The notes under the pieces are model-generated. The model was not told where the DNA came from and ran no database searches. It worked only from the letters and a program-made list of their open reading frames with translations. A stretch of 64,000 nt of DNA, taken from positions 928,001-992,000 of the forward strand of contig CAXXDV010000001.1 of assembly GCA_963674745.2 (NCBI GenBank). Direction: 5' to 3'. Position numbers and translations under genes: made by a program. The DNA is from Desulfosudaceae bacterium (GTDB lineage: Bacteria; Desulfobacterota; Desulfobacteria; Desulfobacterales; Desulfosudaceae). Positions 13,881 to 30,897 of the stretch are shown one piece after another (position 1 is the first letter of the stretch; every line of letters starts with the position of its first letter).

Positions 13881-13909
13881 GACTGTCTTTTTGAGCTTCC
13901 TTGTTGACC
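13881..13909 (-). other. truncated terminal attC (R''-L'' half only)
   Basis: Minus strand GGTCAAC just after the vapC stop, nearly complementary to the cassette start GTTGGCC; no second arm. Confidence 0.55.
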
Positions 13910-13911
13910 TA

Positions 13912-14295
13912 TTATTTCTTATAGGCGGGTTTTAAGCCGGCAAACATTGGATAATGATTTACATTAAGGGTTTTTAACTCGGCTTTTTCTGCGTCAGCTG
14001 TTGCAGCCAGGATGGCGTCCGCAAGCCCTATACCATGAGACTTGCCATAATCACGTTTGTAAAGTCCGCCTGTTTTTGCAATTTCAGCAGTCAAAGGCAC
14101 AACACGAAACAAGGAGATAAAATTCTCTAATACAAATAGCTCCGTATCGCCTTTTACACCAGCATACAATTCGGCAACAACAATTGGAGAGAGGATTAAT
14201 CGAGAAGAAAATTTATTTACAAACGCAACGGCCTTTTCTTGACCACGTAAAAAATCAACCAGCACATCAGTGTCAACAAGGATTGATTTTGGCAT
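13912..14295 (-). CDS. vapC: PIN-domain toxin VapC
   Basis: LVDTDV, AELYAG, GLADAILAATA and TLNVNHY PIN motifs. Confidence 0.95.
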   Translation of the reverse strand: MPKSILVDTDVLVDFLRGQEKAVAFVNKFSSRLILSPIVVAELYAGVKGDTELFVLENFISLFRVVPLTAEIAKTGGLYKRDYGKSHGIGLADAILAATADAEKAELKTLNVNHYPMFAGLKPAYKK

Positions 14296-14297
14296 AA

Positions 14298-14531
14298 TTA
14301 TTCTCTATCCCAATCTGACCTTAAGGCCCTGAAGGGAGGAAGATCTTTACGATTTTTCCAGATTCCAGCAGCCTCTTGTAATGCTGTTTTTTTCCGATTT
14401 TGCCCGGCCTGGTCGATAAGTCGATCAATTGCCTCGCGGATGAGCTCACTCTGTTTTTTACCAAGATCCCTTGCAATAACAGATAGTTCAGCCCGCTGTT
14501 TATCTGTCAGGTACACTTGTGTTCGAATCAT
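14298..14531 (-). CDS. vapB: CopG/RHH antitoxin (VapB)
   Basis: RTQVYL...SELIREAID ribbon-helix-helix directly upstream of vapC. Confidence 0.9.
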   Translation of the reverse strand: MIRTQVYLTDKQRAELSVIARDLGKKQSELIREAIDRLIDQAGQNRKKTALQEAAGIWKNRKDLPPFRALRSDWDRE

Positions 14532-14548
14532 ATTGCACCTCCACTGAA

Positions 14549-14588
14549 GTATACATTACACATATACATTAAAATGACATTTTGTCAA
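14549..14588 (-). promoter_or_regulatory. cassette-internal vapBC promoter/operator
   Basis: TTGACA immediately after R'; overlapping palindrome TGACA-AAA-TGTCA; two AATGTATA direct repeats. Confidence 0.55.
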
Positions 14589-14677
14589 GGCCAACGGTTA
14601 AGGTCACTTGCGCCGCCAAAGAACTTGATCGTGAGGCCGCAGACGTGCTCGGAGTCAAGTGGACCGCCTGGTTCGGC
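14589..14677 (-). other. attC site (intact, 89 bp)
   Basis: GCCGAAC-CAGGC-GGTCCACTTGACTCCG...CGGCGCAAGTGACC-TTAACC-GTTGGCC, with the canonical extra C and A on the R'' arm. Confidence 0.9.
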
Positions 14678-14679
14678 TG

Positions 14680-14895
14680 TTATTTATGAACGTCCCTTTG
14701 AGGGAATGGTATAGTTAGTCCGGCGGCTTCAATCTGTTCATTTATCTTTTTGTTTGCATCCCAATAGACGTCCCAGTAATTTTCAACGCTGGCCCACGCC
14801 CTTAACTGCAAATTCACCGAGCTGTCTGCCATAGCCTGTACCATCATTTTGGGTGCTGGTTCAGCCAGAAATCGTGGTTCATTCTGAATAACAGA
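14680..14895 (-). pseudogene. mscS: 3' fragment of an MscS mechanosensitive channel cassette
   Basis: Manual translation ...EPAPKMMVQAMADSSVNLQLRAW...YWD...GLTIPFPQRDVHK*; the 5' part is missing. Confidence 0.85.
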
Positions 14896-15179
14896 AATAG
14901 TAATGATATAGTCGGCCTGTCTTTTGTCCCGTTTTTTGATTTTGTGGAGATTTAAGGTTGTTATTAAATAAAATCACATCATTTCGAAGAAATCAACGAT
15001 ATCTGTTGTTATCAAACCATTATAAGAATTATAAAGATCGTCGCTTCTACCACGAAAACGGCCCGCCTAGCTATGGTTTTTGGGAAAGATTATTGAGACC
15101 CGGCAACCCTTCTTATCATAACCGGATTTTTATAATAAATTAATGTGATATAGCTTAGAAACCTTTGACTTCAACAAGC

Positions 15180-15324
15180 CCGGTTATTTCACGAGTCGAG
15201 TTTGCCGCAGATGCGAGGCGCAGTATGCGAAGCCGTAGTGAACTACTGCGAGCATGCTGCAACAAAGCAGGTGCGGTGAAATCGGCTCGCCCGGAGGGTG
15301 AATTTTTTGATATAAATTGACCGG
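15180..15324. repeat. long imperfect hairpin / MITE-like element
   Basis: Nested inverted repeats across 15192-15289 plus outer CCGGTTATTT / AAATTGACCGG. Confidence 0.55.
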
Positions 15325-15525
15325 ATTCCTTCAAAATAACAATTACAGTTTGCATTTTGTCTAAACGGATAAAATATGACATAACATATTGAAATATAAT
15401 CATAATAAATTCAATATCAAAAAATCTCATGAAATATCGGGCTAGCTGCTCTGACACAAAAATATATACATACCATATAATATATACTATTAATTGTTCA
15501 GGGACTTAATCTGAAGCGGGAAATC

Positions 15526-18500
15526 ATGCAATACCTTCAAAAAACATTTAATTTGCTTCACTATACCTGTCTACGGATTGCTGTAATTATTTGTTTAGTT
15601 GCCTTGATTGGTTTTTATGGGTGTGGTGGCGGGAGTCACAGTTCATCCTCAACTCCCGGGGATGGGGATAATGGCAGCGATGAATCACCAACAGTGCAAG
15701 AAGGCGTGCTCATCGATAGTCCAGTAAAAGGTTTGAATTTTAAAACAAACTCTCAGGCGGGTATTACAGATGATAATGGTACTTTTTTATATTTGAATGG
15801 TGAAACGATCGAGTTTTTACTGGGTAGCCTTTCTTTGGGACAGACGATTGGTAAATTGCAACTATCTCCGATTGATCTCATAAACAGCATTGAAGGCGAC
15901 ACCAACCCTGCTGTAGTGAATATCTGCCGACTTTTACAGTCTCTTGATAGTGATAATAACCTGGATAACGGAATCCAGATTGATCCGCAGGTCATAAATC
16001 AAATTAACGGCCTGCAGACAGCTTTTAATTTTGACGCAGATTTTTTTTATGATGATGAGAATGTTCAAGCACTTTTTGATGCATTGAATGATGCCGGCGT
16101 CTTTGCTAATGGTCCCCGTAAATTAAAATCCAAGGCGCAAGCCATCACTCATTTACGAAAGAGTTTGGGTTTAGACGAATGTTCTCCTTGTGAAGGCAAG
16201 GTCAGCGAGTTGACCTTACAATATAATGGGCGTTCTAACCCCCGGGTTAAAATTGTACAAGAAGACGGAGAAGTGGTTTTTGATGGTGCGGTTTCTCCCA
16301 GTGAACAGTTTACTATTGCCGGCCGGGACGACAAAGGGACATTGAGTCCGTGGGTTATGGTTTATATAAATAATATTGAACAGTCCCAAGTCCATACCAG
16401 TTGTTCTGTCCCGATAGGGCCCGGACTGATTATCGGTGATTTTGAAATTATTTCCGGTTTCAGTCGTAATGGCGGTCCGCTTTGTCCGGTAGCTGAAGAT
16501 GATACCGGGGATAATGGTGATAACGACATTGATGGTGATAACGATCAACCGAACACATATTATCTTGATGCTGATGGAGACGGATACGGTAATCCCGGAA
16601 CTTACACTCAGGCAGTAACCGCGCCGGCCGGGTTTGTAAGTGACAACACGGACTGTAATGATAATGATGCAACCATAAATCCAGGCGCCGATGAGGTCTG
16701 TGGGGATGATATCGACAATAACTGTGACAATACGCTTGATGACGGTTGTGCATATTATTATCAGGATGCAGATCAAGACACTTATGGTGATTCCACAATG
16801 AGTGTTTTTGGATCTTCTGCGCCAGCGGGCTATGTGGACGACGGTACAGACTGCAATGACGAAAATTCCAATATCAATCCGGGCGCGACTGAAATTTGTG
16901 ATGGATTAGACAATGATTGTGATGGATTCATAGATGAGGGATGCCGTTATTATTACCGGGATTCGGATGGCGATGGATACGGTAATCCTGCGATAGTTAC
17001 TTTTGCACGTTTTGCTCCGGCTGGATATGTAATCAACGACACAGACTGCGATGATACTGATATAACGGCTTATCCCGGCGCAGATGAACTCTGTGACGGG
17101 AAAGACAACAACTGTGACGGTATAATTGATGAGCCGGCGGCGGGAACGGCGGATGTGACATTTGCCGGTCTTCTTGAAGAGATGGTCAATCGCGAAGGCT
17201 TCATGCTGAATACAGCGCCGGAATACACGTCGGCCATGTTCAGCAGTTATGACAGGGGCTCAATCCCGGAAGGGCGTGATAATTTGGATTTTTGCCAGTA
17301 CGTTCGCCAGGAGTTGATTGACGGCAGGAACGAGTGGGTCATGTTTGACCATGAGGGACCGGGGGCGGTGGTGCGTATCTGGCTGACCGCGCCATTATAC
17401 CAGGGTACCATCCGGATTTATCTGAATTCTTCAGACACGCCGGTCATTGAAGGCGCACCGGACGATATTGTGGGAAAACAGGCGCTGGTGGGAAGCCCCC
17501 TGTCCGCGGAACGCTCCCTCGGGATGAATCTCTATCTGCCGATTCCGTATGCCTGTCACTGCAAGATCACCTATGACGGCAACAACTGTTTTGAGACCTT
17601 AGACCCGGATGACCTCTTTTATTACCAGATCAACTATCGTACCTATGCAGCGGGTACCACGGTTCAATCGTTCTCCATGGACGATCTTACGACCTATGGC
17701 ACGGAAATTCAGAACGCTCAGGACCATCTGTCCACACCGTCAATGTCTGTTTCCGCACCGGACAGAACCATCAGCGGCACTCCGGGGATTGTGCTGGACC
17801 CCGGCGAAACGTTTGAACAGCCGGTTTCAGGCCCCGGGGCCATCACCCGGTTGCAAATCTCTTTAGACAGTGCCGCAGACGTAGATCAAGCCTTGCGGTC
17901 AACGGTTCTGGCGATCGATTTTGACGGTGTTACCAGGGTCTGGAGCCCTGTCGGCGACTTTTTCGGCTCGGGTCCGGGACGTTATCCTTATGTCACATGG
18001 TGGCAGGAAGTGTCCGGTGATAACACGATGACGTCACGATGGGTCATGCCGTTTCAGGCAACGGCCGTCATCCGGTTCATCAATCTCGGCAGCCAGCAGG
18101 TTACGGTTTCTCTGAAGGATACAGCGGTGATAGACGATGCCTGGCGGGAGGGGTATTCCATGTATTTTCATGCCACATGGCACAGCCAGCGCAATATCCC
18201 GGTTACAGCGTTTACAGGCAGTGATTGGAATTATGTGACCATCAGCGGGAAGGGCCTGTATATGGGGGATACCCTTACGGTATATAACCGTGCTTCTGTA
18301 TGGTGGGGAGAGGGAGATTCCAAGATATGGGTGGATGGCGATACATTCCCGTCATTTTTCGGGACCGGAACCGAGGATTATTACGGATATGCGTTCTGCG
18401 GGGATGGCGGTACTTATGAGGCGCCGTTTCATGCCCAGCCCCGGGGAGAGGGCGATTCGGATAACATCGGCTATACCACAAACACGCGCACACGCAGCCT

Positions 18501-18666
18501 GGACGCGATACCCTTTACCAGCAGGCTGCAGGTCGATATGGAACTCTGGCACTGGGCGACAACAGGGATGGACTACGCGGTGACCTGCTACTGGTACGCC
18601 TTTGACGGGGCGACATCAAACCGGGTTGCCGAGCCGGATGAAGCCGCCGCCCAGCTTGTTGAGTAG
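15526..18666 (+). CDS. large lipoprotein with MopE-like Cys/Asp repeats and a C-terminal GH172 (DUF2961) domain
   Basis: Lipobox FYG-C; repeated DxDGDGYG...DCND...PGAxExC-DxxDNxCD units; WGEGD and GTGTEDYYG motifs. Confidence 0.85.
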   Translation: MQYLQKTFNLLHYTCLRIAVIICLVALIGFYGCGGGSHSSSSTPGDGDNGSDESPTVQEGVLIDSPVKGLNFKTNSQAGITDDNGTFLYLNGETIEFLLGSLSLGQTIGKLQLSPIDLINSIEGDTNPAVVNICRLLQSLDSDNNLDNGIQIDPQVINQINGLQTAFNFDADFFYDDENVQALFDALNDAGVFANGPRKLKSKAQAITHLRKSLGLDECSPCEGKVSELTLQYNGRSNPRVKIVQEDGEVVFDGAVSPSEQFTIAGRDDKGTLSPWVMVYINNIEQSQVHTSCSVPIGPGLIIGDFEIISGFSRNGGPLCPVAEDDTGDNGDNDIDGDNDQPNTYYLDADGDGYGNPGTYTQAVTAPAGFVSDNTDCNDNDATINPGADEVCGDDIDNNCDNTLDDGCAYYYQDADQDTYGDSTMSVFGSSAPAGYVDDGTDCNDENSNINPGATEICDGLDNDCDGFIDEGCRYYYRDSDGDGYGNPAIVTFARFAPAGYVINDTDCDDTDITAYPGADELCDGKDNNCDGIIDEPAAGTADVTFAGLLEEMVNREGFMLNTAPEYTSAMFSSYDRGSIPEGRDNLDFCQYVRQELIDGRNEWVMFDHEGPGAVVRIWLTAPLYQGTIRIYLNSSDTPVIEGAPDDIVGKQALVGSPLSAERSLGMNLYLPIPYACHCKITYDGNNCFETLDPDDLFYYQINYRTYAAGTTVQSFSMDDLTTYGTEIQNAQDHLSTPSMSVSAPDRTISGTPGIVLDPGETFEQPVSGPGAITRLQISLDSAADVDQALRSTVLAIDFDGVTRVWSPVGDFFGSGPGRYPYVTWWQEVSGDNTMTSRWVMPFQATAVIRFINLGSQQVTVSLKDTAVIDDAWREGYSMYFHATWHSQRNIPVTAFTGSDWNYVTISGKGLYMGDTLTVYNRASVWWGEGDSKIWVDGDTFPSFFGTGTEDYYGYAFCGDGGTYEAPFHAQPRGEGDSDNIGYTTNTRTRSLDAIPFTSRLQVDMELWHWATTGMDYAVTCYWYAFDGATSNRVAEPDEAAAQLVE

Positions 18667-18811: not shown

Positions 18812-18847
18812 TGTTAACGTCCACGGTCCCTTATCAACGTGTTAGCA
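18812..18847 (-). other. internally deleted attC (36 bp)
   Basis: TGCTAAC-ACGTT-GATAAGGGACCG-TGGAC-GTTAACA; both R boxes present, stem lost. Confidence 0.55.
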
Positions 18848-18883
18848 CGTTTTTTAGGATTGAGCCGTATGAGATGTATGTCC

Positions 18884-19234
18884 TTAGAAATTTTTCTTAA
18901 CCTTTTTCATTTCATTTTTATGATAAAGGTCAAAGAAAATAACACTATTGTCTGGGATGGTCTGACAATCATCGCATTCCTTTTCCAAACGACGGTTCTC
19001 CTTCCGACATAGTTTACACCAATAATAAATGACCCGGTATTCACGTTTGCCGACATATTTCTTAAAGCGCCCATGATAAAGCCCGTGCATTTTCCCATCC
19101 GCATCGTCCGGTTCAGCAATTAGACGATCCACAACCTGTCGGATGCGTTTGTAACCAGAAGGATCAGACTGCTTTACTTTTTCCAGTTTTTGGGAAAAAT
19201 GCTCAGTCGGTCTATACAAATTGTCTCCGTTCAT
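18884..19234 (-). CDS. RelE/ParE-like protein with a CxxC...CxxC insert
   Basis: F.xKL helix, L..EP and VGKREYRVIY RelE-type pattern; CKLC and CDDC. Confidence 0.6.
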   Translation of the reverse strand: MNGDNLYRPTEHFSQKLEKVKQSDPSGYKRIRQVVDRLIAEPDDADGKMHGLYHGRFKKYVGKREYRVIYYWCKLCRKENRRLEKECDDCQTIPDNSVIFFDLYHKNEMKKVKKNF

Positions 19235-19249
19235 TGACTGTCATCCTTA

Positions 19250-19298
19250 ATGCAACAAAGAGAAGGTGCCGGCTGGCCTTTGCGCGGCCTTGTTAGCG
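19250..19298 (-). other. degenerate attC
   Basis: CGCTAAC-AAGGC-CGCGCAAAGGCCAGCC after the GNAT stop; second arm mostly lost. Confidence 0.55.
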
Positions 19299-19303
19299 AT
19301 TTG

Positions 19304-19840
19304 CTACTCTCGCCAGTGTTCCGGTTTATCCAACATATGTGCGCACTTAACTTTACCAGATACGCTACCTATAATTCCTGAACGTAGTTCTTGCACCATC
19401 CATGCATTAGCGTGCTCTTCTGGGATTAGATAAGGCGCTTCAAATCCTTGCACACCAGCCGGTTTAAAACCATAACGGGGATAATAGTCAGGATGCCCAA
19501 GCACGAAGACTAAATCAATACCAGCAGCGGTTAAGAGCTTTATGCCATGTGCTATAAGCTTACCTCCTACACCTTGTTTTTGATAATCAGGGAGCACCGC
19601 TAAAGGGGCTAATAGCGATATGGATGTACCTTTTTGTGTGCCTTCCAGACATGCTGATGTGAACAGAATATGCCCAATTGCTTTATTATTATCAAACGCA
19701 AGGATAGAAAAGAATGGTTGAGCGCTTGGGTCACTCAATAAATCATTTACAAGATTTGCCTCTTTATCGTATCCAAATGCCTCTTTCTCAACTAAAAGTA
19801 CGTCACTAACTTCTGTGTCTTTTGCTTCTCGAATTATCAT
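19304..19840 (-). CDS. GNAT N-acetyltransferase (YhbS-like)
   Basis: LAPLAVLPDYQKQGVGGKLI and VLGHPDYYPRYGF. Confidence 0.92.
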   Translation of the reverse strand: MIIREAKDTEVSDVLLVEKEAFGYDKEANLVNDLLSDPSAQPFFSILAFDNNKAIGHILFTSACLEGTQKGTSISLLAPLAVLPDYQKQGVGGKLIAHGIKLLTAAGIDLVFVLGHPDYYPRYGFKPAGVQGFEAPYLIPEEHANAWMVQELRSGIIGSVSGKVKCAHMLDKPEHWRE

Positions 19841-19862
19841 TGTTTCTCCGATTCCGGTTTAT

Positions 19863-19991
19863 CGCTAACGAAAAGTTCACTTTGCTGCCAAAAGCGCCGT
19901 CTGGTTCTCTCAGGAAACCGAAGAATATTAAGAGAGACAGGCCTGAAAAAGCCGCGCTTTTTGCAGTCAAATGTGGAACAATTTGTAAGTG
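19863..19991 (-). other. attC site (129 bp; R'' variant CACTTAC)
   Basis: GTTCCACATTTGACTGCAAAAAGCG / CGCTTTTGGCAGCAAAGTGAAC stem; R' GTTAGCG. Confidence 0.8.
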
Positions 19992-20057
19992 CTTCCATAG
20001 TTATATTTGATATTTTTATATGAATATGGCTTTAAAAAATACCAAATTAAACAATAT

Positions 20058-20465
20058 TCATTTACCTGTTTCGATTGTGGCTACTAAACGGGAATCTTTT
20101 AAAGCTGCTGATCTATGGATAACTATTTCTTGATAAGACACGCTCTCGATCATTTCAATGAATTTTTCGATAGACGGATAACGGACAAGAAAGATTTGAT
20201 CCCAATGTTCATCCGGAGGACCTATAATTGAAGCCAGGGCTTCTCCATACCACACAAGCTCTGCACCCACCTTTGTTAAATGCGCTAATGCTTTTTCACT
20301 ATATTTAGCGTATGCAGCTTTGCCTGAAATATTCGTGTTTCCATCAGGGTATTTTGCAGTTTCTCTATATCTCAGCATGTTAAGCATTATTACTGGAACG
20401 CCTTTTGGAATTTCTGCAATTGCTTCTTGAATCTGATTTTGTCTTGGATCAATTGTTCCCATCAT
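20058..20465 (-). CDS. DUF1330 family protein
   Basis: MLNMLRYRE, WDQIFLVRYPS and HRSAALKDSRL motifs; start at MMGTIDP because the longer ORF runs through the attC. Confidence 0.85.
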   Translation of the reverse strand: MMGTIDPRQNQIQEAIAEIPKGVPVIMLNMLRYRETAKYPDGNTNISGKAAYAKYSEKALAHLTKVGAELVWYGEALASIIGPPDEHWDQIFLVRYPSIEKFIEMIESVSYQEIVIHRSAALKDSRLVATIETGK

Positions 20466-20513
20466 ATTTATTTCCAAAATTTTGTTAACTATAAGTAGAA
20501 TTATTGAACTTAT

Positions 20514-20599
20514 GCAGTACCGCCCACGATGAGGGGCCGGAAAAGCAAGAGAGGAACGAACGCCGCTTTTTCCGGTCACTCTCAATTGTGAAGTTCGGC
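20514..20599 (-). other. attC site (86 bp; R' variant GTACTGC)
   Basis: GCCGAAC...GAGTGACCGGAAAAAGC / GCTTTTCCGGCCCCTC stem. Confidence 0.75.
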
Positions 20600-21043
20600 A
20601 TTTTCATTTTTAATGTATTCCATAATGATGGCATAAAAAAACCAGTGAATACCACAAGTGTCAATCAAATAGAAAAAAATAGCTATTACACCGTAAATGA
20701 TTGAAGAAGGAACGAATAGAGATCCTAAGAAAATGGGTGTTCCCCCAAACATTGGCAATCCTGATACAAACCGGTATTCATCCAAATTCCCATGCTTCTT
20801 GTTATATAACCACGGCCTGGTAAAAGATAAATGAAAATTAAGTCCCGATACGAAGAAGCCCAAAATGGATAATATGGAACCAAGGATCATAACCCATGAA
20901 ACTTCAATCGGAGTTGATGAGGAAAGAATATGCTTATAGATGATAATCGCCGGGAAGACGACGCCACATAAACCTAAAATTAGGAGAGTAAAAAAATCCC
21001 CTAATTTATTGCTTGTCGTTTTTATTGGTATATGATCTGCCAT
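20582..21043 (-). CDS. hypothetical membrane protein (about 4 TM segments)
   Basis: Hydrophobic segments; stop lies inside the attC; bounded by GTTCGGC/GCCGAAC. Confidence 0.8.
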   Translation of the reverse strand: MADHIPIKTTSNKLGDFFTLLILGLCGVVFPAIIIYKHILSSSTPIEVSWVMILGSILSILGFFVSGLNFHLSFTRPWLYNKKHGNLDEYRFVSGLPMFGGTPIFLGSLFVPSSIIYGVIAIFFYLIDTCGIHWFFYAIIMEYIKNENAELHN

Positions 21044-21052
21044 GATTTGACT

Positions 21053-21105
21053 GCCGAACGCCGCGGATGACAGGTGGGCTTCTGACGATCAAGCTTGGGT
21101 TGCAA
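21053..21105 (-). other. half attC (L'-R' side), remnant of a deleted cassette
   Basis: R' GTTCGGC with a spacer and L-like arm, directly abutting the next attC with no gene between. Confidence 0.5.
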
Positions 21106-21109
21106 AAAA

Positions 21110-21234
21110 TATGAACGTCCGCCACCAATGGCAGCCAGGGCTTCCACTGACTTGTTTAAAGGTTTCGGTTGTTCAGTACCCCCGATTTTTCAAAACCCGA
21201 GTGTCCTGGCTGTCCACTTGAGCTTGATTTCTAC
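21110..21234 (-). other. attC site (125 bp; R'' variant GTAGAAA)
   Basis: CAGCCAGGAC / GCCCTGGCTG stem; related in sequence to the attC at 29683. Confidence 0.75.
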
Positions 21235-21788
21235 GATTTTTTCTTTCCTTTGACTGGTTCTATAAAGCCAATTGATTGATTCTTTCCCTTTGGCTTTGGG
21301 CTATCTATAAGTTTTCTTATTTCATGAACCAATTCAATTAAAATTTCGTCATGGTCGCTTACGCGTTTTTCTAATTCAATGAATTTACGTGATAATTTTT
21401 CGTTTTTCAACGCCATTTCTCGGAGCTTGATAAAAGTCCTGACGATAAATACACTCATTTTGTTCGCTTGGGATGAGTTTAGAACATTTGCCGCCTGTAA
21501 AGCTCCGTGTTCAGTAAAAACTAATGGGAGTTTCCGTCGGCCGCCCCAAGTGGAACTTGATGTCGCAAATTGCGATTTCAAGTTTTCGAATTCTTCCTTG
21601 GTTAATTGGAACATAAAATCGCCCGGAAATTTATCAATGTTGCGACGAACTTGCTCGTTTAGGCGTCTGGTCTCTACGCCATATAGTGTCGCTAAATCGG
21701 AATCAAGTATAACTTTTTCTCCCCGTACGATTATAATAATATTCAATATTTTTTCTTCGGGAATAAGACTTCCAGATTTCCTTGGCAT
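21231..21788 (-). CDS. ORF6N domain DNA-binding protein
   Basis: VILDSDLATLYGVET, FPGDFMFQLT and GGRRKLPLVFTEHGA. Confidence 0.92.
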   Translation of the reverse strand: MPRKSGSLIPEEKILNIIIIVRGEKVILDSDLATLYGVETRRLNEQVRRNIDKFPGDFMFQLTKEEFENLKSQFATSSSTWGGRRKLPLVFTEHGALQAANVLNSSQANKMSVFIVRTFIKLREMALKNEKLSRKFIELEKRVSDHDEILIELVHEIRKLIDSPKPKGKNQSIGFIEPVKGKKKS

Positions 21789-21813
21789 AATTTATGTCCT
21801 CAAATTATTTATC

Positions 21814-23760: not shown

Positions 23761-23765
23761 TTGTC

Positions 23766-23825
23766 GGCTAACGGCGCTAATAAGTCGCGCGGCTGTAAAC
23801 GGTACGGTTCAGGGCTTTGTTGGCA
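23766..23825 (-). other. chimeric/non-pairing attC (60 bp)
   Basis: R'' TGCCAAC and R' GTTAGCC are intact but the inner arms are not complementary. Confidence 0.65.
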
Positions 23826-23857
23826 TCTCATGTAAATATTGCGGATGTAGGAGCTCA

Positions 23858-25327
23858 TCACTCTTTCCCTAGCGATACCAGTTCAATCGTCTCGGCATAC
23901 GATCGTTTGAGAATTTCGTCACCTGCCGTGGCTAGCTCGGCCCAACCTTCGTCCGCAATTCTGCCCATGTGTTCAAGCTGCAGTTGGGAACGATCGAAGA
24001 GCCAGTACTTCAGTGATGGCAAGAGGTAGCGAACCAGTGCCAACCATTCCGGGTAATTGATGGCAAGGGGGTTCCCTTGATACAAGGCCACCTTGCCCGC
24101 GTTTCCGGCACAAGCAACGGCGTGTGCGGAAAGAAGCATGGACCTGTACTTCGGGTTCTTGGCCAGAAGGAACGGGACTTCACCGTTCTCAGCGTAGTGC
24201 CGGATCATGAGATAGCCTCTCAGAATGATCTCAATGACCGCTGGCGTGATACCCATCACAAGGAAGTGCCGGAAATCGTAACCGTTCGTGTACATCCATC
24301 TGGCCACCTGCCCTACCGTCCGTCCTCCTTTCCCAAGATTACCTGTGTTGATGCCCTGAAAAAGGGTGAAGAATGGAGGAGGAATGCCCGGAGGCGTCGC
24401 GACATCAGAAATCAGATGGCCCATTTGTTTCAGAATCGCTGTGATCAGACCCACCGGCTCTAGGTTGGTCCAGACTTGGCCCTGTGCGAGTTCATGAACG
24501 CCAGAAAGCTTTTCGTACGAAAACCCCGTAATCGTACCTCTCATGATGTCGAGCACCCCGAAGATGAAGCCAAGGACGGGATCATGTCCCAAAGTCTGGA
24601 ACCTGTGGGTCGTCCCCCCTGCACCCTTCAGCCTTTCCAGTCTTCCAGCCTTTTCGAAGACCGTTCCGTCGTAAGGAACTCTGCATTTCGACTCCAGACT
24701 GCGCGCCCATCTGGCGAACCAATCCTGTCGTCCGCCCTGCTTCCGGGAATCGTACTTCTTCAGCCATTCCGTAATAGGGCTCGCCTGCTGCCCCGAATAC
24801 TGTCCCGTGTTGAAGCTGCGAGGGATCTTCACCAAAAGGAAATCAGTCAGACTCGCCAGCACCCCGGCAGTGCCGACAAACGAGTAGTCCCACTTGTCCC
24901 ACAGGTACTGTGTCCCGTACTCCTCCTGCTTCAGGCGCTCAAGATCGTCATTGCACAAGAACGCTTCCCAAGGCAGGGAACAGTCCAAATCGTGCTCTGC
25001 GCAATATGCTACACTGTCACGGACGAACTGGTCCCAATCGACAAAGGCTAGGACAGAGGTTTCCCGTGCGACAGCCTCGCGCCGTCGCTGATAGATGGTT
25101 TCGATTTCCCCTGGATCCCAATCCGCCATGTCGGCGGCGCAAAGGAGCCCGCTCTCCTGCTCGATGTCGTCCATGAGGCCTGACAACACTTGAAGCTGGT
25201 CAGCCTGTCCGTTCGCTTCTCCGAGCGCCGGAGCCAAAGCGTCCAGTCGTCCGCTCGCCTGATCGAGCACATGCCGCTGACCTTGGAGTACGGCCCGTAA
25301 CGAATGGAGATCCGACGCGGTCGTCAT
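23858..25327 (-). CDS. hypothetical protein with N-terminal coiled coil and hydrophobic segments
   Basis: 489-aa ORF overlapping the upstream gene by ATGA; PYD, HRFQTLGHDP and HLISDVAT motifs. Confidence 0.85.
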   Translation of the reverse strand: MTTASDLHSLRAVLQGQRHVLDQASGRLDALAPALGEANGQADQLQVLSGLMDDIEQESGLLCAADMADWDPGEIETIYQRRREAVARETSVLAFVDWDQFVRDSVAYCAEHDLDCSLPWEAFLCNDDLERLKQEEYGTQYLWDKWDYSFVGTAGVLASLTDFLLVKIPRSFNTGQYSGQQASPITEWLKKYDSRKQGGRQDWFARWARSLESKCRVPYDGTVFEKAGRLERLKGAGGTTHRFQTLGHDPVLGFIFGVLDIMRGTITGFSYEKLSGVHELAQGQVWTNLEPVGLITAILKQMGHLISDVATPPGIPPPFFTLFQGINTGNLGKGGRTVGQVARWMYTNGYDFRHFLVMGITPAVIEIILRGYLMIRHYAENGEVPFLLAKNPKYRSMLLSAHAVACAGNAGKVALYQGNPLAINYPEWLALVRYLLPSLKYWLFDRSQLQLEHMGRIADEGWAELATAGDEILKRSYAETIELVSLGKE

Positions 25328-26196
25328 GCAACAGCCCTCGCTTCCCTTTGACGCAGCACCTGTTTGAGGGAGGTGAGTCGCTCCGTCAGAATTGCGATCG
25401 CCGTTCGGTTGGCTTCGGACTTCGCCGCCTCTGCTTCCAGCGATTCAATTCTGTCGATTATTTGGGCAATGGCTTCCTGAAGGTTCTTGATGACTAGTTG
25501 GGCCTTCCGCTCCTGCGCTGCGCGAAGCTTCTCTTCCTTGACCTTCCTACTGTCCCCGAGAAGCCACGTTGTGCCCAGAAACACAGCTGTTCCGAGCACT
25601 ACCGCGACTCCAATACCAGGCACCATGCCAAACCCCAAACCGAGAGCGGCAAGACCCCCGGTAATGCCCGCTGCGCTCAGACCGATGATGGTACCGCTGA
25701 AGTACACTGCGGCAATGGGCACTCCCACCGCGCCGAGTCCTGCTGCCGCGGCCTTGATGGCCTTCTCCGCGGCATTGTTGTCAAGTCCCTCGCGAGCAAC
25801 GCGGCGAGCCTCCTTCACAAAATTGATGATCGCCTTCCGCTGGTCTTCGGTGACCCGCAGTCGTGTGCACACGGATGAGAGGAAATCCTTCTCCTCTTCT
25901 TCCATAATGTCGTCAGCCAATATGGTCTCCACCACGGCTACGATCACGGCATATCGCAGTTCGTCACGTGCGTTAACCAGTTGGTCCAGACAAGAATCGA
26001 GATTAGGTGGCGTCAGTACAAACCCTTGAACCTGCTTGCGATGGGCTTCGTCCAGCGCCTCGAGGTCGAGCGAGCCGAAAATCGCTACCATCTCTTCCCT
26101 GGAGGCGTTTCCATCGGCGGCCGATGCAGCGAAACTCAAGCCGTAGAAGGCTATCAACTGGTCCTGCGGGATTGTGCTCATGTCGAACTTGGCCAT
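25324..26196 (-). CDS. TerB-like domain protein with Gly-rich TM region and coiled coil
   Basis: AADGNASREE and LADDIMEEEE paired TerB motifs; GLSAAGITGGLAALG; AAGGA RBS. Confidence 0.8.
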   Translation of the reverse strand: MAKFDMSTIPQDQLIAFYGLSFAASAADGNASREEMVAIFGSLDLEALDEAHRKQVQGFVLTPPNLDSCLDQLVNARDELRYAVIVAVVETILADDIMEEEEKDFLSSVCTRLRVTEDQRKAIINFVKEARRVAREGLDNNAAEKAIKAAAAGLGAVGVPIAAVYFSGTIIGLSAAGITGGLAALGLGFGMVPGIGVAVVLGTAVFLGTTWLLGDSRKVKEEKLRAAQERKAQLVIKNLQEAIAQIIDRIESLEAEAAKSEANRTAIAILTERLTSLKQVLRQREARAVA

Positions 26197-26240
26197 TGCG
26201 GTGTTCCTTTCTCATGGGTTGATTCGTCAATCTTGTCTAA

Positions 26241-26345
26241 TGCCAACATCCACGGTGTGGGGCCGCAAGGGGAACGTGCCACCGCAAAAAACTCATTATT
26301 GGAAAAAAGTGGTAAGAGCCAAAGCCGGACGTCCCTTGCGGTCCC
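26241..26345 (-). other. attC lacking its R''-L'' end
   Basis: GGGACCGCAAGGG / CCCTTGCGGCCC stem and R' GTTGGCA, fused directly to a gene fragment. Confidence 0.7.
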
Positions 26346-26572
26346 TGCCAACGCACCAAAAATCCATTCTGACCGGAGTCTTCACCCTGAATCCGGATTG
26401 GTTTATTTAAATAATAACACCCATCCCCAAAATAAATATTTATATCAGAAGTCATGCTTCTGCCGGCCGTTTTAATAAGATCAGTGACCCTCTCAAGAGA
26501 ACAGGGATTGCCTTTCTTTCCATCCCCTTCCCCATTGGGCGAAACATAAAAATTATTCATCGTTTTTCTCAT
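26345..26572 (-). pseudogene. truncated duplicate of the 5' end of the beta-helix gene
   Basis: 26345-26584 aligns without gaps to 23533-23772; both start MRKTMNNFYVSPNGEGDGK. Confidence 0.9.
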
Positions 26573-26577
26573 TTATC

Positions 26578-26638
26578 GGCGAACGGCTCTGGTGTGGGGC
26601 GCGCGGCTGTTTACGCGTCCCACACCAGATGGTTCGGT
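26578..26638 (-). other. attC site (61 bp)
   Basis: ACCGAAC-CATCT-GGTGTGGGACGCG...CGCGCCCCACACC-AGAGCC-GTTCGCC. Confidence 0.85.
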
Positions 26639-26646
26639 GTCTTCCT

Positions 26647-27318
26647 TTAAGGACTCACTCGACTTGCGAATTCCAGAACGCCTTGGCACATCATGCTCAC
26701 CTGATCGGTATTGTAGTCGTTATACTTACCATGAGCCGCGTGATTACGAAGGTCCAACCAAGCAGTAACATTCTTTTGTTCTAATTTCCCATATACACCG
26801 GCTTTTGCAAGGTCTGCGTTCATAGCATCAGCCTTTTTAGGCATCTTCTTCCTCCCTGCTAGCAATTCCGTATCGATTGAATTTGCTTGACATAACTGCC
26901 TAAGATGTTCTTCAAGCACACTTCCCACTATAACGGCACTTGCATCCTTATATCCCTCCGAAAGCAAGTATTCCGCCATTTCAAGAAAATCAGCAAATAT
27001 CTCGGCGGCGGCTATAGTTTTTGTCTGAATTACCCAGCCACCGGCAATTTCATTTCGTGCGGCTGTCATCACACCTATTGCATTTTTTAAATCGGATGAG
27101 TAGCCGACTGTGGCTTTATCTATTATATCTTCATAGTAGGGATGTTCTTTTCCGAAAATGCCAAGAAGAAAAGAAAGTATCGCTGCCCGAATAGATCGGA
27201 AACTACCCTCATCAACATATTTGAGATTGTGCGCTCTGGAAGACTTTTCCGTCTGTAGAAGATCAGTAGCCTGTTTTATTAAATCATCCGCCCTTGCGAC
27301 AATATCTGATAATTTCAA
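26647..27318 (-). CDS. HEPN (DUF4145-like) domain protein
   Basis: ASAVIVGSVLEEHLR and LRNHAAHG (Rx4H); AGGAGG RBS favours the TTG start at 27318. Confidence 0.8.
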   Translation of the reverse strand: MKLSDIVARADDLIKQATDLLQTEKSSRAHNLKYVDEGSFRSIRAAILSFLLGIFGKEHPYYEDIIDKATVGYSSDLKNAIGVMTAARNEIAGGWVIQTKTIAAAEIFADFLEMAEYLLSEGYKDASAVIVGSVLEEHLRQLCQANSIDTELLAGRKKMPKKADAMNADLAKAGVYGKLEQKNVTAWLDLRNHAAHGKYNDYNTDQVSMMCQGVLEFASRVSP

Positions 27319-27333
27319 AAGCACCTCCTATGA

Positions 27334-27463
27334 ACCCAACGGGAAGCTGAGGGGCCGGGCGTCTTGAACTCGGAGCCTCAGATAAATCCTTTATTTTGCT
27401 AAATCATATGTTTCAGGGAAAACCGCGCGTTAAGCCCGGTCCAACTCAAGAGTTTTGTTCGGG
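27334..27463 (-). other. attC site (130 bp)
   Basis: CCCGAAC-AAAAC-TCTTGAGTTGGACCGGGC...GCCCGGCCCCTCAGC-TTCCC-GTTGGGT. Confidence 0.85.
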
Positions 27464-28348
27464 TTTAAGGTCATTCTTTAGTATTTTGAAAGGATTGCTA
27501 TTTAGTTCCCATTGCTCAATTTCTTGATACAAGTTTGTCAAAACAAAATCATTTATTGAGTAGGCTAAACGGAAAAGTCTGTGGATATTGCCATTTTCTG
27601 CAATGGAAGCCTGTAATGTTGCAAACAATTTCCGCAGACTTAATGCAAATAGACCGAGCAAATCATGTCCGCATGAAAGTTCCAATTTATCGAGATCTTC
27701 TTCATTCTCCATAACTTGATTTATAAGAGTTATAATTTCTGCATCTTGAGGCAAGTCCAATTCATAGTTATGTTTTGCAGCATTTTGTTGAGTAATGTCC
27801 TGCACATATCGCACCATTTTGTCTATATCTATTTCAAGGGTACTTTTGTTCGTGAATTTTTGATAATTTAATTCGTGAAACACAAAATGAAAATTGTTTC
27901 TCTGTGATATAAGCCTGAAGATTCCTATCATACTAGATTTCGAATAAAAGAAGTCTTTCAAATTGTCATATCCAATTATTTTTCTTGGCGAACAATACTC
28001 AGAAACTACTCGACTAAATGCATTGCTATTAAAAAGCATACCTTCAACGTCGTGAGTATCGGACACTAAAATATTGTCAGGCAAATCAGGAAGGCCTTCA
28101 ACCCGCCAGAAATCGGCATCAACTATTGCCAATATCCCCTTTCCTGCTGAATCATTCACTATCTCGATTGCAGAAATTGCATTATCTTTACCGTGAGCTA
28201 TAATGATATGCGTAAAATGAGAATCGAAAAAATTTTCAAATAACATAGAATCATTGTTGCCTTCGAGAATAACAATCGTATCAGGAAAAGCAGTTCGAAC
28301 CATTTCCACTTCGGTAGCTATAGATTCTCCTGTAACATTCTCAAGCAT
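27446..28348 (-). CDS. ariB: DUF4435 / TOPRIM-like protein (PARIS AriB-like)
   Basis: ILEGNND, IVDADF, HDVE and CGHDL motifs; overlaps the ATPase gene. Confidence 0.8.
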   Translation of the reverse strand: MLENVTGESIATEVEMVRTAFPDTIVILEGNNDSMLFENFFDSHFTHIIIAHGKDNAISAIEIVNDSAGKGILAIVDADFWRVEGLPDLPDNILVSDTHDVEGMLFNSNAFSRVVSEYCSPRKIIGYDNLKDFFYSKSSMIGIFRLISQRNNFHFVFHELNYQKFTNKSTLEIDIDKMVRYVQDITQQNAAKHNYELDLPQDAEIITLINQVMENEEDLDKLELSCGHDLLGLFALSLRKLFATLQASIAENGNIHRLFRLAYSINDFVLTNLYQEIEQWELNSNPFKILKNDLKPEQNS

Positions 28349-29660
28349 TTCCCCCTCCCTTTGGCAAAGAAACCATTAATGAACGTCGGTCATGAATAAT
28401 AGAAGGAGAATGGGTGGCGATGAGAAAATCAAGATCAGCCAATTTTGATATTCGCTCAATATCATTTAAAAATTTATGTTGCCATGTTACATGAAGAGAC
28501 AACTCAGGCTCATCTATCATAATGAATGATTTCTCTGGCACTTTGAATAAAAGTTCATACGCCAAAACTAATTCATGCTGTTCGCCAGAAGAAAGACATT
28601 TAAGAGGGACATTTTTGCCAGAATCTAATTTAAAGACAAATCCATCAGATTTGCTTAAGGAGAATGATTTATACAGGAAGCGAGAGTTGATAATATCCTT
28701 GAACAATTCAACCTTTTTCATTAATGGATCGAACACCTTAAGTTTTTCATCGATATCATTCAAATAATACCATAGTAATTTTAAATCGTTAGACTCTATA
28801 TTGCTGGTGGGCAGGGAGACTTGTTCTTCTTCATCGATCAATCCAGCTTTCATTAATCGTCCCCTATAAGAACTTTGATTTTGGTATTTTTCTCTAATAT
28901 TCTTTTCGGTAGCTTCCTTTGGGGCGCCAGATTCAAGCAATCTATGGGGGAATGTTCTATCCAATGATGCAGCGACAGAACCTGATTGCCGTAATGTTTC
29001 TTGAAGCTTCTCGGCCATTTCAACCGAGTATTTCTCCACAGTATTTCTTGTTCGTACCTGGCTTCTTGGTGATCTATATGATTCTTCATGGCTCAGAACC
29101 AACAATCGCTGAGTCTGAATAAAATATGTTTTCAAATTTGATAAAATATCAATAATCTCCTTTGGCATTGAATCATGAGAGCCTTTAGTAAAAGGGAGGT
29201 CATTGCCATATCTGTATAAAACCTCTTCTAATGAGATCATTTCTCCTGTACTAGTATCAAACCATCTCCTAGGTCCAGTTCTGTCTAAGTGGGGGATGAC
29301 ATCGTCAATTATATGAATAGGGAAGTCTTTTCCTAATTCCTCTTGCGTTAAGGAAAAATCAATAGAGCCCCTCTGGAGAACGTTTCTTCCTTTTTTTAAC
29401 TTCAGAGACAAGGTCATATTGCCGTTCTTTTTAATTTCCAATTTCTGTTTATTTGTAAAAGTTATCAGAACTTTGGAGAATGGCACTGTTTTAATGACAT
29501 GAAATTTTTTGCTGAAAATATCTTTTATAAGCTGTAATATTGTGGTTTTCCCAACGCCGTTAGGTCCGTGAATAATTGTTATTCTATCAGAGACTTTGAG
29601 CTTGATGTCGTGATCAAACATCCCAAATATTTTCATTATTTCAATTCGTTCAATTCGCAT
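28341..29660 (-). CDS. ariA: ABC-type ATPase AAA_15/AAA_21 (PARIS AriA-like)
   Basis: Walker A GPNGVGKT, signature LSSGEQ, Walker B IDEPE and H-loop ATHS. Confidence 0.85.
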   Translation of the reverse strand: MRIERIEIMKIFGMFDHDIKLKVSDRITIIHGPNGVGKTTILQLIKDIFSKKFHVIKTVPFSKVLITFTNKQKLEIKKNGNMTLSLKLKKGRNVLQRGSIDFSLTQEELGKDFPIHIIDDVIPHLDRTGPRRWFDTSTGEMISLEEVLYRYGNDLPFTKGSHDSMPKEIIDILSNLKTYFIQTQRLLVLSHEESYRSPRSQVRTRNTVEKYSVEMAEKLQETLRQSGSVAASLDRTFPHRLLESGAPKEATEKNIREKYQNQSSYRGRLMKAGLIDEEEQVSLPTSNIESNDLKLLWYYLNDIDEKLKVFDPLMKKVELFKDIINSRFLYKSFSLSKSDGFVFKLDSGKNVPLKCLSSGEQHELVLAYELLFKVPEKSFIMIDEPELSLHVTWQHKFLNDIERISKLADLDFLIATHSPSIIHDRRSLMVSLPKGGGNA

Positions 29661-29682
29661 CTATGTCTCCTTTTCTCTCGCT

Positions 29683-29811
29683 CCCGAACGGCGGCAGCCA
29701 ATGGGAGCCAGGGCTTCCACTGATTTGCCTTAAAGACGGTTAATATTCAATTTTTTCAACTTTTCAAATCCCGAATGCCCTAGCTATCTTTTGGGCTGCC
29801 TTGGGTTAGCC
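29683..29811 (-). other. attC site (129 bp)
   Basis: GGCTAAC...CAGCCCAA..AGCTAGGGC / GCCCTGGCT..TTGGCTG-CCGCC-GTTCGGG. Confidence 0.85.
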
Positions 29812-30153
29812 CTCGCTATCAGGATTATATTCAATAGTTGTAATAACTTCATAAAGATTGTCGTATTTGAAGTTGAAACCCAACCAAGAACTATAAACAG
29901 AACCATTTTTCTGGAATATTTCATCTTCCCGGAATTTTCTTTTAAGCAGCAACAGAAGCTCTTCTTTTGTTGTATTAGGGCCAATGTAAAAACAAATTTC
30001 CTTTAGCTCAGAGAATGATGATTCAGCCTCATATAATTGCTGGTTGCGGGTTTCCAGTGTCAATCCTATATCGATAAATTTCCCAAACCAGAAAAAATTA
30101 TTTACAATAAAGACAGTGATAATTGCGATGGCGATGATAATTTTCTTTTTCAT
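29806..30153 (-). CDS. hypothetical protein with an N-terminal membrane anchor
   Basis: Stop codon is the TAA of R'' GGCTAAC; MKKKIIIAIAII anchor. Confidence 0.8.
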   Translation of the reverse strand: MKKKIIIAIAIITVFIVNNFFWFGKFIDIGLTLETRNQQLYEAESSFSELKEICFYIGPNTTKEELLLLLKRKFREDEIFQKNGSVYSSWLGFNFKYDNLYEVITTIEYNPDSEG

Positions 30154-30166
30154 AATTTTTCTGTAG

Positions 30167-30290
30167 GGCTAACGTCCGCCACCACCGGCGAGCAGGGTTT
30201 GCGGACTTCTTAAATGTTAGTTCAACACCACACTATGCAAAAACTAAGGCAGGGCGCCCCTGCGAGTCTGTGTGAGTGGCGTTGTTATGC
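30167..30290 (-). other. attC site (124 bp)
   Basis: GCATAAC-AAC-GCCACTCAC...GCAGGG / CCCTGC...GTGGTGGC-GGAC-GTTAGCC. Confidence 0.8.
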
Positions 30291-30605
30291 ATATTTTTCA
30301 GGGTTAGTTTGCTCTTTAAGTTCGGCCGATAGATTCTCGACATCTTCGTCTTGAACTAAGCCTTCCCGGCGCAACATCATAAGTTGAATCATCGCTTTCG
30401 AGCGACTGTGATCATTTAACAACAAGGCTATCTGCTTATCATAGTTCTCGATCAATCGGTATAGATATAGATACTTCCCATGATTGGTCGGAATTTCCTT
30501 GTTATTTAGGCCTTCAGATACATCATTGAGCACAGTTCCGCAGAAGCGCTCTAAAGCCGCTTCTTTTATTATCTTAAACTTTTTCCAATCAGATTCTGAG
30601 ATCAT
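30285..30605 (-). CDS. hypothetical protein (first cassette)
   Basis: ESDWKKFK...ALERFC; stop inside R'' GCATAAC, which matches the start box GTTATGC. Confidence 0.85.
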   Translation of the reverse strand: MISESDWKKFKIIKEAALERFCGTVLNDVSEGLNNKEIPTNHGKYLYLYRLIENYDKQIALLLNDHSRSKAMIQLMMLRREGLVQDEDVENLSAELKEQTNPEKYA

Positions 30606-30618
30606 AATTTCTTACTAT

Positions 30619-30670
30619 GCATAACAGTGTAATAATTGGAAAATATTCCGTCTTATTTTCCATGTTTGCT
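30619..30670 (-). other. candidate attI site
   Basis: Core GTTATGC at the head of the first cassette with no attC hairpin upstream; AT-rich flank. Confidence 0.55.
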
Positions 30671-30757
30671 TTTCCCGATATCTTTCCCCCGTGTTTTCCA
30701 TTTATTGCCATATTAAAGCATCAAACATGGAAAGTTGAGCGAAAACGTATTGAGAAC

Positions 30758-30786
30758 ATTTAACGCTTTTATTCATCAGGTGTCAA
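30758..30786 (-). promoter_or_regulatory. candidate Pc promoter reading into the array
   Basis: TTGACA-17 nt-TTAAAT on the minus strand. Confidence 0.5.
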
Positions 30787-30897
30787 CACTCTGGCCGAAA
30801 GCCTATAGCCTGGGTAGGAATTAAGCTGTTCGGTTGAGTCCGCCAACGATACCGCCCTGTTTGTGTATGAGGGGATCAGGGCAAGGTAGGAGTTGAT

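Follow-up and report, generated by a model that had tools for sequence, protein, structure and literature searches.

Two probable tandem integron platforms with attI-type heads and no integrase gene of their own in a Desulfosudaceae chromosome

A long run of genes that point in one direction and are separated by palindromic repeats raises the question of what kind of element it is and how it came to stand where it does. It lies at 13.87-30.74 kb of a 64,000-nucleotide stretch of the chromosome of a Desulfosudaceae bacterium (assembly GCA_963674745.2, here genome G000; positions 928001-992000 of contig C1). This whole stretch is the window, and positions without a contig prefix refer to it. Almost all open reading frames (ORFs) of the run are on the minus strand, and the short gaps between the genes hold imperfect inverted repeats with ...AAC and GTT... 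boxes at their ends. GC content is 0.37-0.48, against about 0.55 in the flanks, with one cassette, the Bunzi-like one described below, at 0.55-0.59. An earlier note on this DNA had read the region as a single integrase-less array of about 15 integron cassettes. The lack of an integrase and the count hold, as there are 14 cassette units and one attC remnant in total, but the cassettes form two arrays rather than one, split by non-cassette DNA at 15035-18811. We consider it likely that the region represents two tandem chromosomal integron platforms without an intI gene of their own, whose minus-strand cassettes each end in an attC site and on which IntI would act in trans.

The repeats provide the main evidence. 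A covariance model, R1, was made from 49 attC sites of three intI-linked arrays of the genome, oriented away from intI and with no window sequence among them, and is specific to three attC families. Its consensus pairs AAC with GTT and contains a 9-bp stem with one unpaired column in the 5' (R''-L'') arm, as well as an inner 6-bp stem; compensatory changes across the three sequence families occur in 11 of its 18 consensus pairs. When both strands of the window were scanned with filters off, R1 gave 18 matches at E <= 10, nine of which are minus-strand cassette boundaries, that is, 9 of the 14 boundary sites. All five matches with E <= 0.011 are on the minus strand within 20.5-30.3 kb: attC1 (30167-30290, 104.8 bits, E 1.6e-27), attC2 (29683-29811, 88.8 bits, E 5.8e-23) and attC8 (21110-21232, 78.5 bits, E 4.7e-20), which align end to end with the model, together with attC5 (26249-26355, 28.1 bits, E 1e-5), where the R'' end is missing, and attC9 (20515-20599, 17.5 bits, E 0.011). 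The remaining boundary matches, also on the minus strand (27334-27463, 26578-26638, 21814-21877 and 13757-13890), score 8-13 bits. A covariance model finding nothing at these sites, the outcome that the earlier note had named as speaking against cassettes, is thus not what was obtained.

The orientation and the box sequences agree with this result. On the plus strand, attC1 and attC2 leave shadows of 11.9 and 8.7 bits, against 104.8 and 88.8 on the minus strand, and this difference, together with the single unpaired column of the 5' arm, identifies the minus strand as the top strand, the same as that of the genes and as proposed before. In canonical attC sites, the extrahelical bases are placed on the '' arm. 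Seven complementary pairs of cassette start and end boxes had been listed for the region, and all of them are present at their exact positions: GTTATGC (30625..30619) with GCATAAC (30290..30284), GTTAGCC (30173..30167) with GGCTAAC (29811..29805), GTTCGGG (29689..29683) with CCCGAAC (27463..27457), GTTGGCA (26247..26241) with TGCCAAC (23825..23819), GTTAGCC (23772..23766) with GGCTAAC (21877..21871), GTTCGGC (21059..21053) with GCCGAAC (20599..20593), and GTTAGCG (19869..19863) with CGCTAAC (19298..19292). The 12 cassettes with both boxes thus comprise seven perfect pairs, three with one mismatch and two that do not match, whereas 3 of 132 non-cognate pairings are perfect (Fisher p 4e-7 for 3/132 against 7/12); the boxes of weak sites were chosen by eye, and those of cassettes 1-3 follow independently from R1 and from the attI alignment. 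Stop codons inside R'', likewise reported earlier, are found in three cases (the 106 aa ORF, the 115 aa ORF and the ORF6N gene), and the ORFs of the AriB-like protein and of a 153 aa membrane protein end inside attC, past R''. By sequence comparison, the repeats of the window fall into three families, which also comprise the attC sites next to the three intact intI genes of the genome; the orientation, boxes and consensus pairing of the window repeats fit attC.

Each array begins, on its upstream side, with an attI-like head. The head of array 1 (type A, 30626..30738, minus strand) is about 82% identical to the stretch that runs from the intI gene at C3:2348261 to its first cassette. Its crossover core, ...ATTACACT/GTTATGC (the slash marks the crossover), extends to 30619; the core TTATTACACTGTT is common to this head and to the attI of the C3:2348261 integron, and the ...TTATTACACT/GTT core is the start point of the first cassette there. 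The homology ends about 12 nt before the expected ATG of intI. The head of array 2 (type B, 14886..15034, minus strand, core ATTACTATTTCT/GTTATTC) has the orientation of the minus-strand cassettes downstream of it, and its part at 14898-15034 shows 92-93% identity over 131-137 nt with two sequences, C1:1736934-1737070 and the region that separates the intI gene at C3:27977 from its first cassette. As judged from these alignments, both heads are homologous to the attI of two complete integrons, up to the crossover GTT. Beyond both heads the sequence is unrelated to intI, and the adjacent divergent intI that marks a complete integron is absent. The fact that attI-type heads have been kept suggests that the arrays are integrons missing only intI, and not bare clusters of attC sites.

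The integrase genes are elsewhere in the genome. In agreement with the earlier note, no tyrosine recombinase ORF was found in the window: none of the 31 genome matches to TIGR02249 and none of the 21 to PF00589 falls within it, and a tblastn search with one IntI (C3:2348k) gave no match there. Three of the TIGR02249 matches, at C3:2348261, C1:2117407 and C3:27977, are above the cut-off; these are the full-length intI genes of the genome, all of them outside the window, and the nearest on the window's contig is more than 1.1 Mb away. BLAST searches with four window repeats gave 75, 128, 108 and 11 matches, which cluster in arrays, three of these directly beside the intI genes. By BLAST the genome has at least 210 distinct attC-family sites at 13 loci; R1 scored 150 candidates in the genome, all at E <= 4.1e-18 and with 78-127 bits. 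Every multi-site array has an attI-type head, giving 11 headed platforms, three with intI, seven without it and one with a broken intI. Type A heads are found with intI at C3:2348k, and without an intact intI in the window, at C1:2265k and at C3:367k; type B with intI at C3:28k, and without it in the window and at C1:1737k; type C with intI at C1:2117k, and without it at C1:1532k, C3:1820.7k and C1:906.6k. The type C orphans keep some 75-90 nt of a diverged intI 5' end, stumps that point to the loss of intI from once-complete integrons.

The attC sites of the window differ in their state of preservation, with about one in two degenerate. Those numbered attC1 to attC4 and attC13 are intact-looking, and the others are affected in several ways: attC8, attC9 and attC10 carry a base change in an R box; attC5 (5'-truncated), attC12 (internally deleted) and attC14 (a half-site) have lost sequence; and attC6, attC7 and attC11 fold or pair poorly. 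With defects spread over these sites, array 1 in its distal part and array 2 at its end seem to be decaying, and much of the array may be immobile.

The cargo had been described as rich in defence and toxin genes, and this is borne out for four to six of the 14 units (PARIS-like, Bunzi-like, PDC-S05/ORF6N, VapBC and HEPN). Cassette 3 (27334..29682, minus strand, as are all cassettes described here) contains an AriA-like gene (28341-29660), an AriB-like gene of the DUF4435/TOPRIM kind (27446-28348) and attC3 (27334-27463; R1 12.8 bits, E 0.22; boxes perfect). In PARIS systems, AriA is an ABC/AAA_15 ATPase and AriB a DUF4435/TOPRIM partner encoded directly downstream. The AriA-like protein matches the PADLOC profile AriA PDLC02979 (residues 1-422 to profile positions 1-373 of 373, E 3.5e-21) and Pfam AAA_15, in part also the PtuA profiles of PADLOC, and its best PDB matches are the AriA chains 8ux9/8v45 (E 5e-17, residues 324-432 only). 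The AriB-like protein, whose gene lies directly downstream with an overlap of 8 nt, has PADLOC AriB as its only family match in that database (E 5.5e-16) and matches Pfam DUF4435 (E 9.7e-8). On the strength of these profiles, the pair may be called PARIS-like. Cassette 6 (23766..26240; boxes perfect) holds a BnzA-like gene (25324-26196), a BnzB gene (23858-25327) and attC6 (23766-23825). BnzB matches PADLOC PDLC03834 from residue 7 to 465 (profile positions 9-500 of 504, E 1.1e-74); the BnzA-like protein shows a TerB match below the cut-off (E 0.0018, 19 bits, against 24.4) and a visible hydrophobic, Gly-rich stretch. The portion of the preprint of Millman et al. that deals with Bunzi presents BnzA as a TerB-domain protein with transmembrane helices, a description that the pair, going by its profile matches, may fit.

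The other candidates are encoded in shorter cassettes. The ORF6N protein of cassette 8 (21110..21813; gene 21231-21788; attC8 21110-21234, with R'' changed to GTAGAAA) matches Pfam ORF6N (E 6e-34), the candidate system PDC-S05 of PADLOC (E 1.3e-52) and an anti-repressor PHROG. Cassette 4 (26578..27333) combines attC4 (26578-26638, 61 nt; hairpin -23.4 kcal/mol, z -6.25; R1 11.6 bits) with the gene of a HEPN-like protein of 225 aa (26647-27324). HEPN proteins of the RiboL-PSP/DUF4145 type carry an Rx4-6H motif in a helical domain at the C-terminus. This protein contains an RNxxxH motif (R193-N-H-A-A-H198), matches Pfam DUF4145 and HEPN_RiboL-PSP below the cut-off (E 0.05), falls into the first Atlas cluster 'putative HEPN' at 0.97 and has 2868 homologues, some with PF18735 (HEPN_RiboL-PSP); a cassette protein that was formerly unannotated thus probably belongs to a large HEPN family. 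In cassette 15 (13871..14588), the last unit of array 2, the genes for VapB (14298-14531; RHH_1, E 1.1e-6) and VapC (13912-14295; PIN, E 2.1e-16) are 2 nt apart, with the antitoxin upstream, and are followed by attC14 (13871-13909), truncated to its left arm, which resembles the attC2 family by eye and gives a partial R1 match (8.2 bits, E 4.4).

If the two platforms are served in trans, as we propose, the enzymes would be the three IntI proteins, whose genes are over 1 Mb distant. Excision would take the form of attC x attC recombination, with the bottom (plus) strand folded as substrate, and the same proteins could insert cassettes at the two orphan attI sites. Competent-looking sites would then be confined to the attI-proximal part of array 1 (attC1-attC4) and to attC13, and the mutations of R boxes, truncations and internal deletions would weld the remaining cassettes together as a fixed island. 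The cassettes are promoter-poor; those with two defence genes, and VapBC, probably have promoters of their own that drive expression, and VapBC may in addition stabilise the array. The platforms themselves would most likely have arisen from complete integrons by deletion of intI.

Several results count against this reading and have to be set beside the evidence for it. The four weak boundary matches are no better than six chance-level matches of the window, such as that at 60380-60423 with 13.9 bits, and 5 of the 14 boundary sites (attC6, attC10, attC11, attC12 and attC13) are without an R1 match at E <= 10. Folding energies fail to separate attC from background, z being about 0 for attC1 and attC2, and a descriptor based on the duplex energy of arm pairing was discarded as a means of detection, with 77-81 sites per strand where mononucleotide shuffles had 38-56. 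Nine of the 14 attC sites have a defect, be it of box, arm or length. For both heads, attI function has homology and position alone as its basis. With 37 promoter-like sites in the promoter scan, against 31.5 +/- 5.3 in shuffles, no convincing promoter emerges, and consequently no cassette promoter (Pc) is claimed. Within the cargo, no sequence in the PDB matches the AriB-like protein at E <= 0.1, and the BnzA-like protein (290 aa) matches the PADLOC BnzA profile (E 3.3e-34) at positions 255-446 of 544 only. Public sequencing, consisting of three runs of one study in the form of contigs, tiles the region at 100% identity except at repeats; every contig joint lies at attC or duplicate sequences, with sides of 21-34 nt, and is put down to these repeats, so that these contigs give no evidence on excision. 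Three further scans were uninformative: the terminator scan was also not above shuffles, a naive minimum free energy scan for AAC...GTT hairpins recovered only attC4, amid many unrelated matches, and Rfam at gathering thresholds gave 0 matches in the window, which speaks neither for nor against attC.

Both the nature of the repeats and the history of the platforms might be seen differently. If the repeats were extragenic palindromes of another sort and the cluster an ordinary defence island, the lack of an Rfam match anywhere in the window and the unexceptional folding energies of the repeats would be expected. This is, however, already contradicted by the genome, and we give it almost no credence: the same families fill the arrays beside three genes that pass the equivalog cut-off for integron integrases, the intI-linked repeats run away from intI with AAC/GTT boxes and covarying stems, and the complementarity of cassette starts and ends holds, as do the attI homologies. 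As to the history, intI may never have been lost in place, the attI-plus-array segments having instead been copied or moved from complete integrons by rearrangement or duplication, an account that we regard as rather improbable. It would be in line with the presence of each attI type in one platform that has intI and in two to three that lack it, with type A orphans (window and C1:2265k) that end within about 5 nt of each other, beside the intI start, with a repeat resembling a miniature inverted-repeat transposable element (MITE) beside the type B head of the window, and with a genome of the same genus (G002) that has no array at the locus. The orphan heads, on the other hand, are just 82-93% identical to the intI-linked copies, so that any copying would be old; in the type C orphans a diverged piece of the intI 5' end survives, as decay in place predicts, and the window arrays share no cassette content with other arrays.

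The same two platforms could also be an inert relic, in other words dead integrons in which cassettes are no longer exchanged and which persist as a fixed island, with defence and toxin genes expressed like chromosomal ones. The defects of R boxes, lengths and pairing in nine attC sites would suit such a relic, and so would the attC remnant at 21053-21109, the truncated genes (the MscS fragment and the fragment of a 277 aa gene) and the distance of over 1.1 Mb to any intI on the contig. We nevertheless find it doubtful, in view of attC1 and attC2, whose 104.8 and 88.8 bits are within the genome range of 78-127 that includes the intI-linked arrays, of the 100% identity over 119 nt between attC1 and a site in an intI-linked array, of two attI cores that are intact to the crossover GTT, and of three full-length intI genes in the same cell. 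The reading of platforms served in trans can be carried further, as a tentative proposal, to that of a distributed integron: the eight orphan platforms may be kept since their attI accepts cassettes in trans, a single IntI then serving several arrays, the ends of the type A heads may mark the selected limit of attI, and the unannotated cassettes of 106, 115, 153 and 116 aa may include new defence or counter-defence genes.

Compared with known systems, this is a known kind of element, and the finding leaves integrons in principle unchanged. According to the passages of the IntegronFinder paper (2016, PMC4889954) that define attC site clusters without an integron-integrase (CALINs), the window region is a CALIN: at least two attC sites share a strand, intI is absent from the vicinity, most cassettes are of unknown function, and the genome also has complete integrons. 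It differs in that both arrays keep an attI-type head, which IntegronFinder does not seek outside classes 1-3, and in that eight such platforms occur beside three complete integrons in one genome. The origins proposed there for CALINs are loss of intI and rearrangement; that CALINs may arise by intI loss and that their cassettes may be mobilised in trans is stated in sections of that paper and of a study of Xanthomonas integrons (PMC12444791). As in the part of the latter devoted to such clusters, where X. citri has CALINs without intI, arrays persist here after the integrase is lost; the genus there has one ancestral platform, in contrast to the many platforms, three attI types and three intact integrases found here. 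A single genome with so many platforms, each orphan array among them having a recognisable attI head, may go slightly beyond these descriptions.

The arrays behave like a decayed sedentary chromosomal integron. Lineage-specific attC families and complete defence systems in single cassettes are also features of the sedentary integrons treated by Darracq et al. (10.1101/2024.07.02.601686), in whose main account 783 defence systems were counted in cassettes, CALINs included. Those integrons, as far as that account extends, belong to another lineage, and the PARIS-like and Bunzi-like pairs described here are of ordinary size and not streamlined; the word 'Bunzi' has 0 occurrences in the main text of that paper. 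Defence genes carried as integron cassettes are shared, furthermore, with the bacteriophage resistance integron cassettes (BRiCs) of mobile integrons (Kieffer et al., 10.1101/2024.07.02.601719), which the relevant portion of that work places in plasmid-borne, class 1-type integrons of clinical bacteria; the present arrays are chromosomal, integrase-less and partly decayed. The locus makes it possible to follow, in a clean and checkable way, where CALINs came from, through attI heads and the intI stumps of sister arrays, and it presents such clusters as former or satellite integrons rather than random insertions of cassettes at secondary sites. With three integrases, three attI types and at least 210 attC sites of shared families, the genome is a natural system for the questions of whether several arrays can be supplied by one integrase and of how arrays decay. 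Phage-defence screens could draw candidates from the cassettes, which are short and self-contained; two have homologues of validated systems, and one encodes a HEPN-like protein whose family is very large and uncharacterised.

The other units of array 1 (18812-30738) can be followed from the type A head, outside which unrelated sequence precedes a co-directional SDR gene (30898-31812). Cassette 1 (30167..30625) consists of a 106 aa ORF without a family (30285-30605) and attC1 (30167-30290), located by R1 and with perfect boxes; attC1 is 100% identical over 119 nt to C3:33000-33118, an attC of the intI-linked C3:28k array, the cassette bodies being different and the typical identity within an attC family being 83-97%. 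Cassette 2 (29683..30166) has a 115 aa ORF, also without a family (29806-30153), attC2 (29683-29811), again found by R1, and perfect boxes. Cassette 5 (26241..26577) contains a 5' fragment of a second copy of a 277 aa gene, with 94.6% identity to 23533-23775 across 243 nt, fused to the 5'-truncated attC5 (26241-26353), of which R1 covers model positions 10-119 only and which is devoid of the R'' that full-length members of its family carry. The first 228 nt of the 277 aa gene and the R' box preceding it are accordingly present twice, at 26241-26587 and 23533-23775, and the second copy ends at a 9-nt microhomology (CGTTGGCAG) with the L'' of the next attC, whose R'' is deleted. The complete 277 aa gene (22927-23760) is in cassette 7 (21814..23765; boxes perfect) with a 347 aa gene (21899-22942) and attC7 (21814-21877; R1 10.3 bits, E 1.2); weak matches to GH141_M and Beta_helix are the only ones for this pair.

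Downstream of cassette 8, an attC remnant was read from the sequence (21053..21109, minus strand), a 3' piece that ends in the R' box GTTCGGC and has neither R'' nor ORF. The 153 aa membrane protein (20582-21043) is encoded in cassette 10 (20515..21052; boxes perfect) with attC9 (20515-20599; R' = GTA), and a DUF1330 protein (20058-20465; Pfam, E 2.4e-8) in cassette 11 (19863..20514) with attC10 (19863-19991; R'' = CACTTAC), whose hairpin has z -2.96 and bulged T, T and G bases on the 3' arm of the plus strand. Cassette 12 (19250..19862; boxes perfect) carries a GNAT acetyltransferase (19304-19840; Pfam Acetyltransf_9/7/1) and the poorly folding attC11 (19250-19298). In the public runs X2 and X3, contigs hold variants of this GNAT cassette (19302-19853) at about 90-95% identity besides the 100% form, indicating relatives of that cassette in the same samples. 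Cassette 13 (18812..19249) closes the array with a 116 aa protein (18884-19234) and attC12 (18812-18847), which matches both ends of the attC5 family consensus and is a member of that family with an internal deletion. The 116 aa protein had looked RelE-like by eye, for which Pfam, PDB and PHROGs gave no support; among the remaining cargo are the 153 aa membrane protein and three small proteins without a family.

Array 2 has the order type B head, MscS 3' fragment, attC13, VapBC and the half attC at 13871-13909, to which an ordinary cupin gene adjoins. In cassette 14 (14589..14885), the MscS ORF (14680-14847) is cut at the attI junction and matches Pfam MS_channel_3rd (profile positions 43-87 of 88, E 6.5e-7) and NCBIfam MscS (226-276 of 286); it is followed by attC13 (14589-14677), with an arm duplex of about -11 to -12 kcal/mol. 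The separators between the two arrays are a plus-strand lipoprotein gene and the MITE-like repeat. The lipoprotein (1046 aa, 15526..18666, not a cassette) has DUF7467, MopE repeats and DUF2961 in Pfam, a terminator-like hairpin at 18694-18710 and a paralogue at C1:120348-121631 that is 49% identical. The repeat (15173..15451; about 272 bp, dispersed, with terminal inverted repeats) has the ends CCGGTTATTTCA...TGAAATATTCGG and a strong internal hairpin (fold z -2.39); four full-length copies at 89-94% identity, which share these ends in alignment, and partial copies are found elsewhere in the genome. It is located just upstream of the lipoprotein gene, at the place where intI would be expected.

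Other arrays of the genome contain two further recurrent elements. A near-identical tyrosine-recombinase-like gene occurs in cassette arrays at C1:1739700-1740487, C1:2102784-2103571, C1:2282465-2283252 and C3:2332314-2333101; each of the four copies matches as parts of 255 aa and 70 aa, with an internal TAA in three of them, as in a broken or split gene. A cassette body of about 288 nt is present in some 30 copies, 87-96% identical, in at least six arrays (for example at C3:29520-29806 and C1:1500468-1500751).

Relatives place the locus in the context of its lineage. In G002, the flanking FGGY-kinase and SDR genes are 10.5 kb apart on one contig, and the interval between them has no R1 match at E <= 1 and matches 1 of 23 window proteins, the SDR itself, with no array genes; the gene order is therefore not that of an ordinary chromosomal segment conserved with its arrays, the outcome by which the earlier note would have been contradicted. 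Of 12 further genomes from the taxonomic family, 8 have the attC families, and intI scores above the cut-off in 14 of 31 genomes, G000 included. Together with the empty locus of G002, this indicates a system typical of the lineage at a variable locus. A search for related loci with the FGGY kinase gave only relatives of at most 60% identity, from other phyla, and for the 453 aa protein of the right flank 30 relatives gave no match at E <= 1e-20. Where a contig of G002 begins (C16:933-3071), three R1 attC matches immediately precede a 76% homologue of window 37806-38292, and an array may thus lie near the corresponding region in a different arrangement. G007, a genome of the same family in one contig and 99% complete, has 11 R1 attC matches at E <= 1e-8 and no TIGR02249 match at E <= 1e-60, and possibly carries nothing but arrays. 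Upstream of the FGGY kinase gene of the window, octamer repeats (GTGATTAAG TGGTTATG TGGTTAAG TGATTAAGG) occupy positions 10679-10713, and near-identical 33-nt runs, often in tandem, occur at many places in G001 and G002, both of the same genus.

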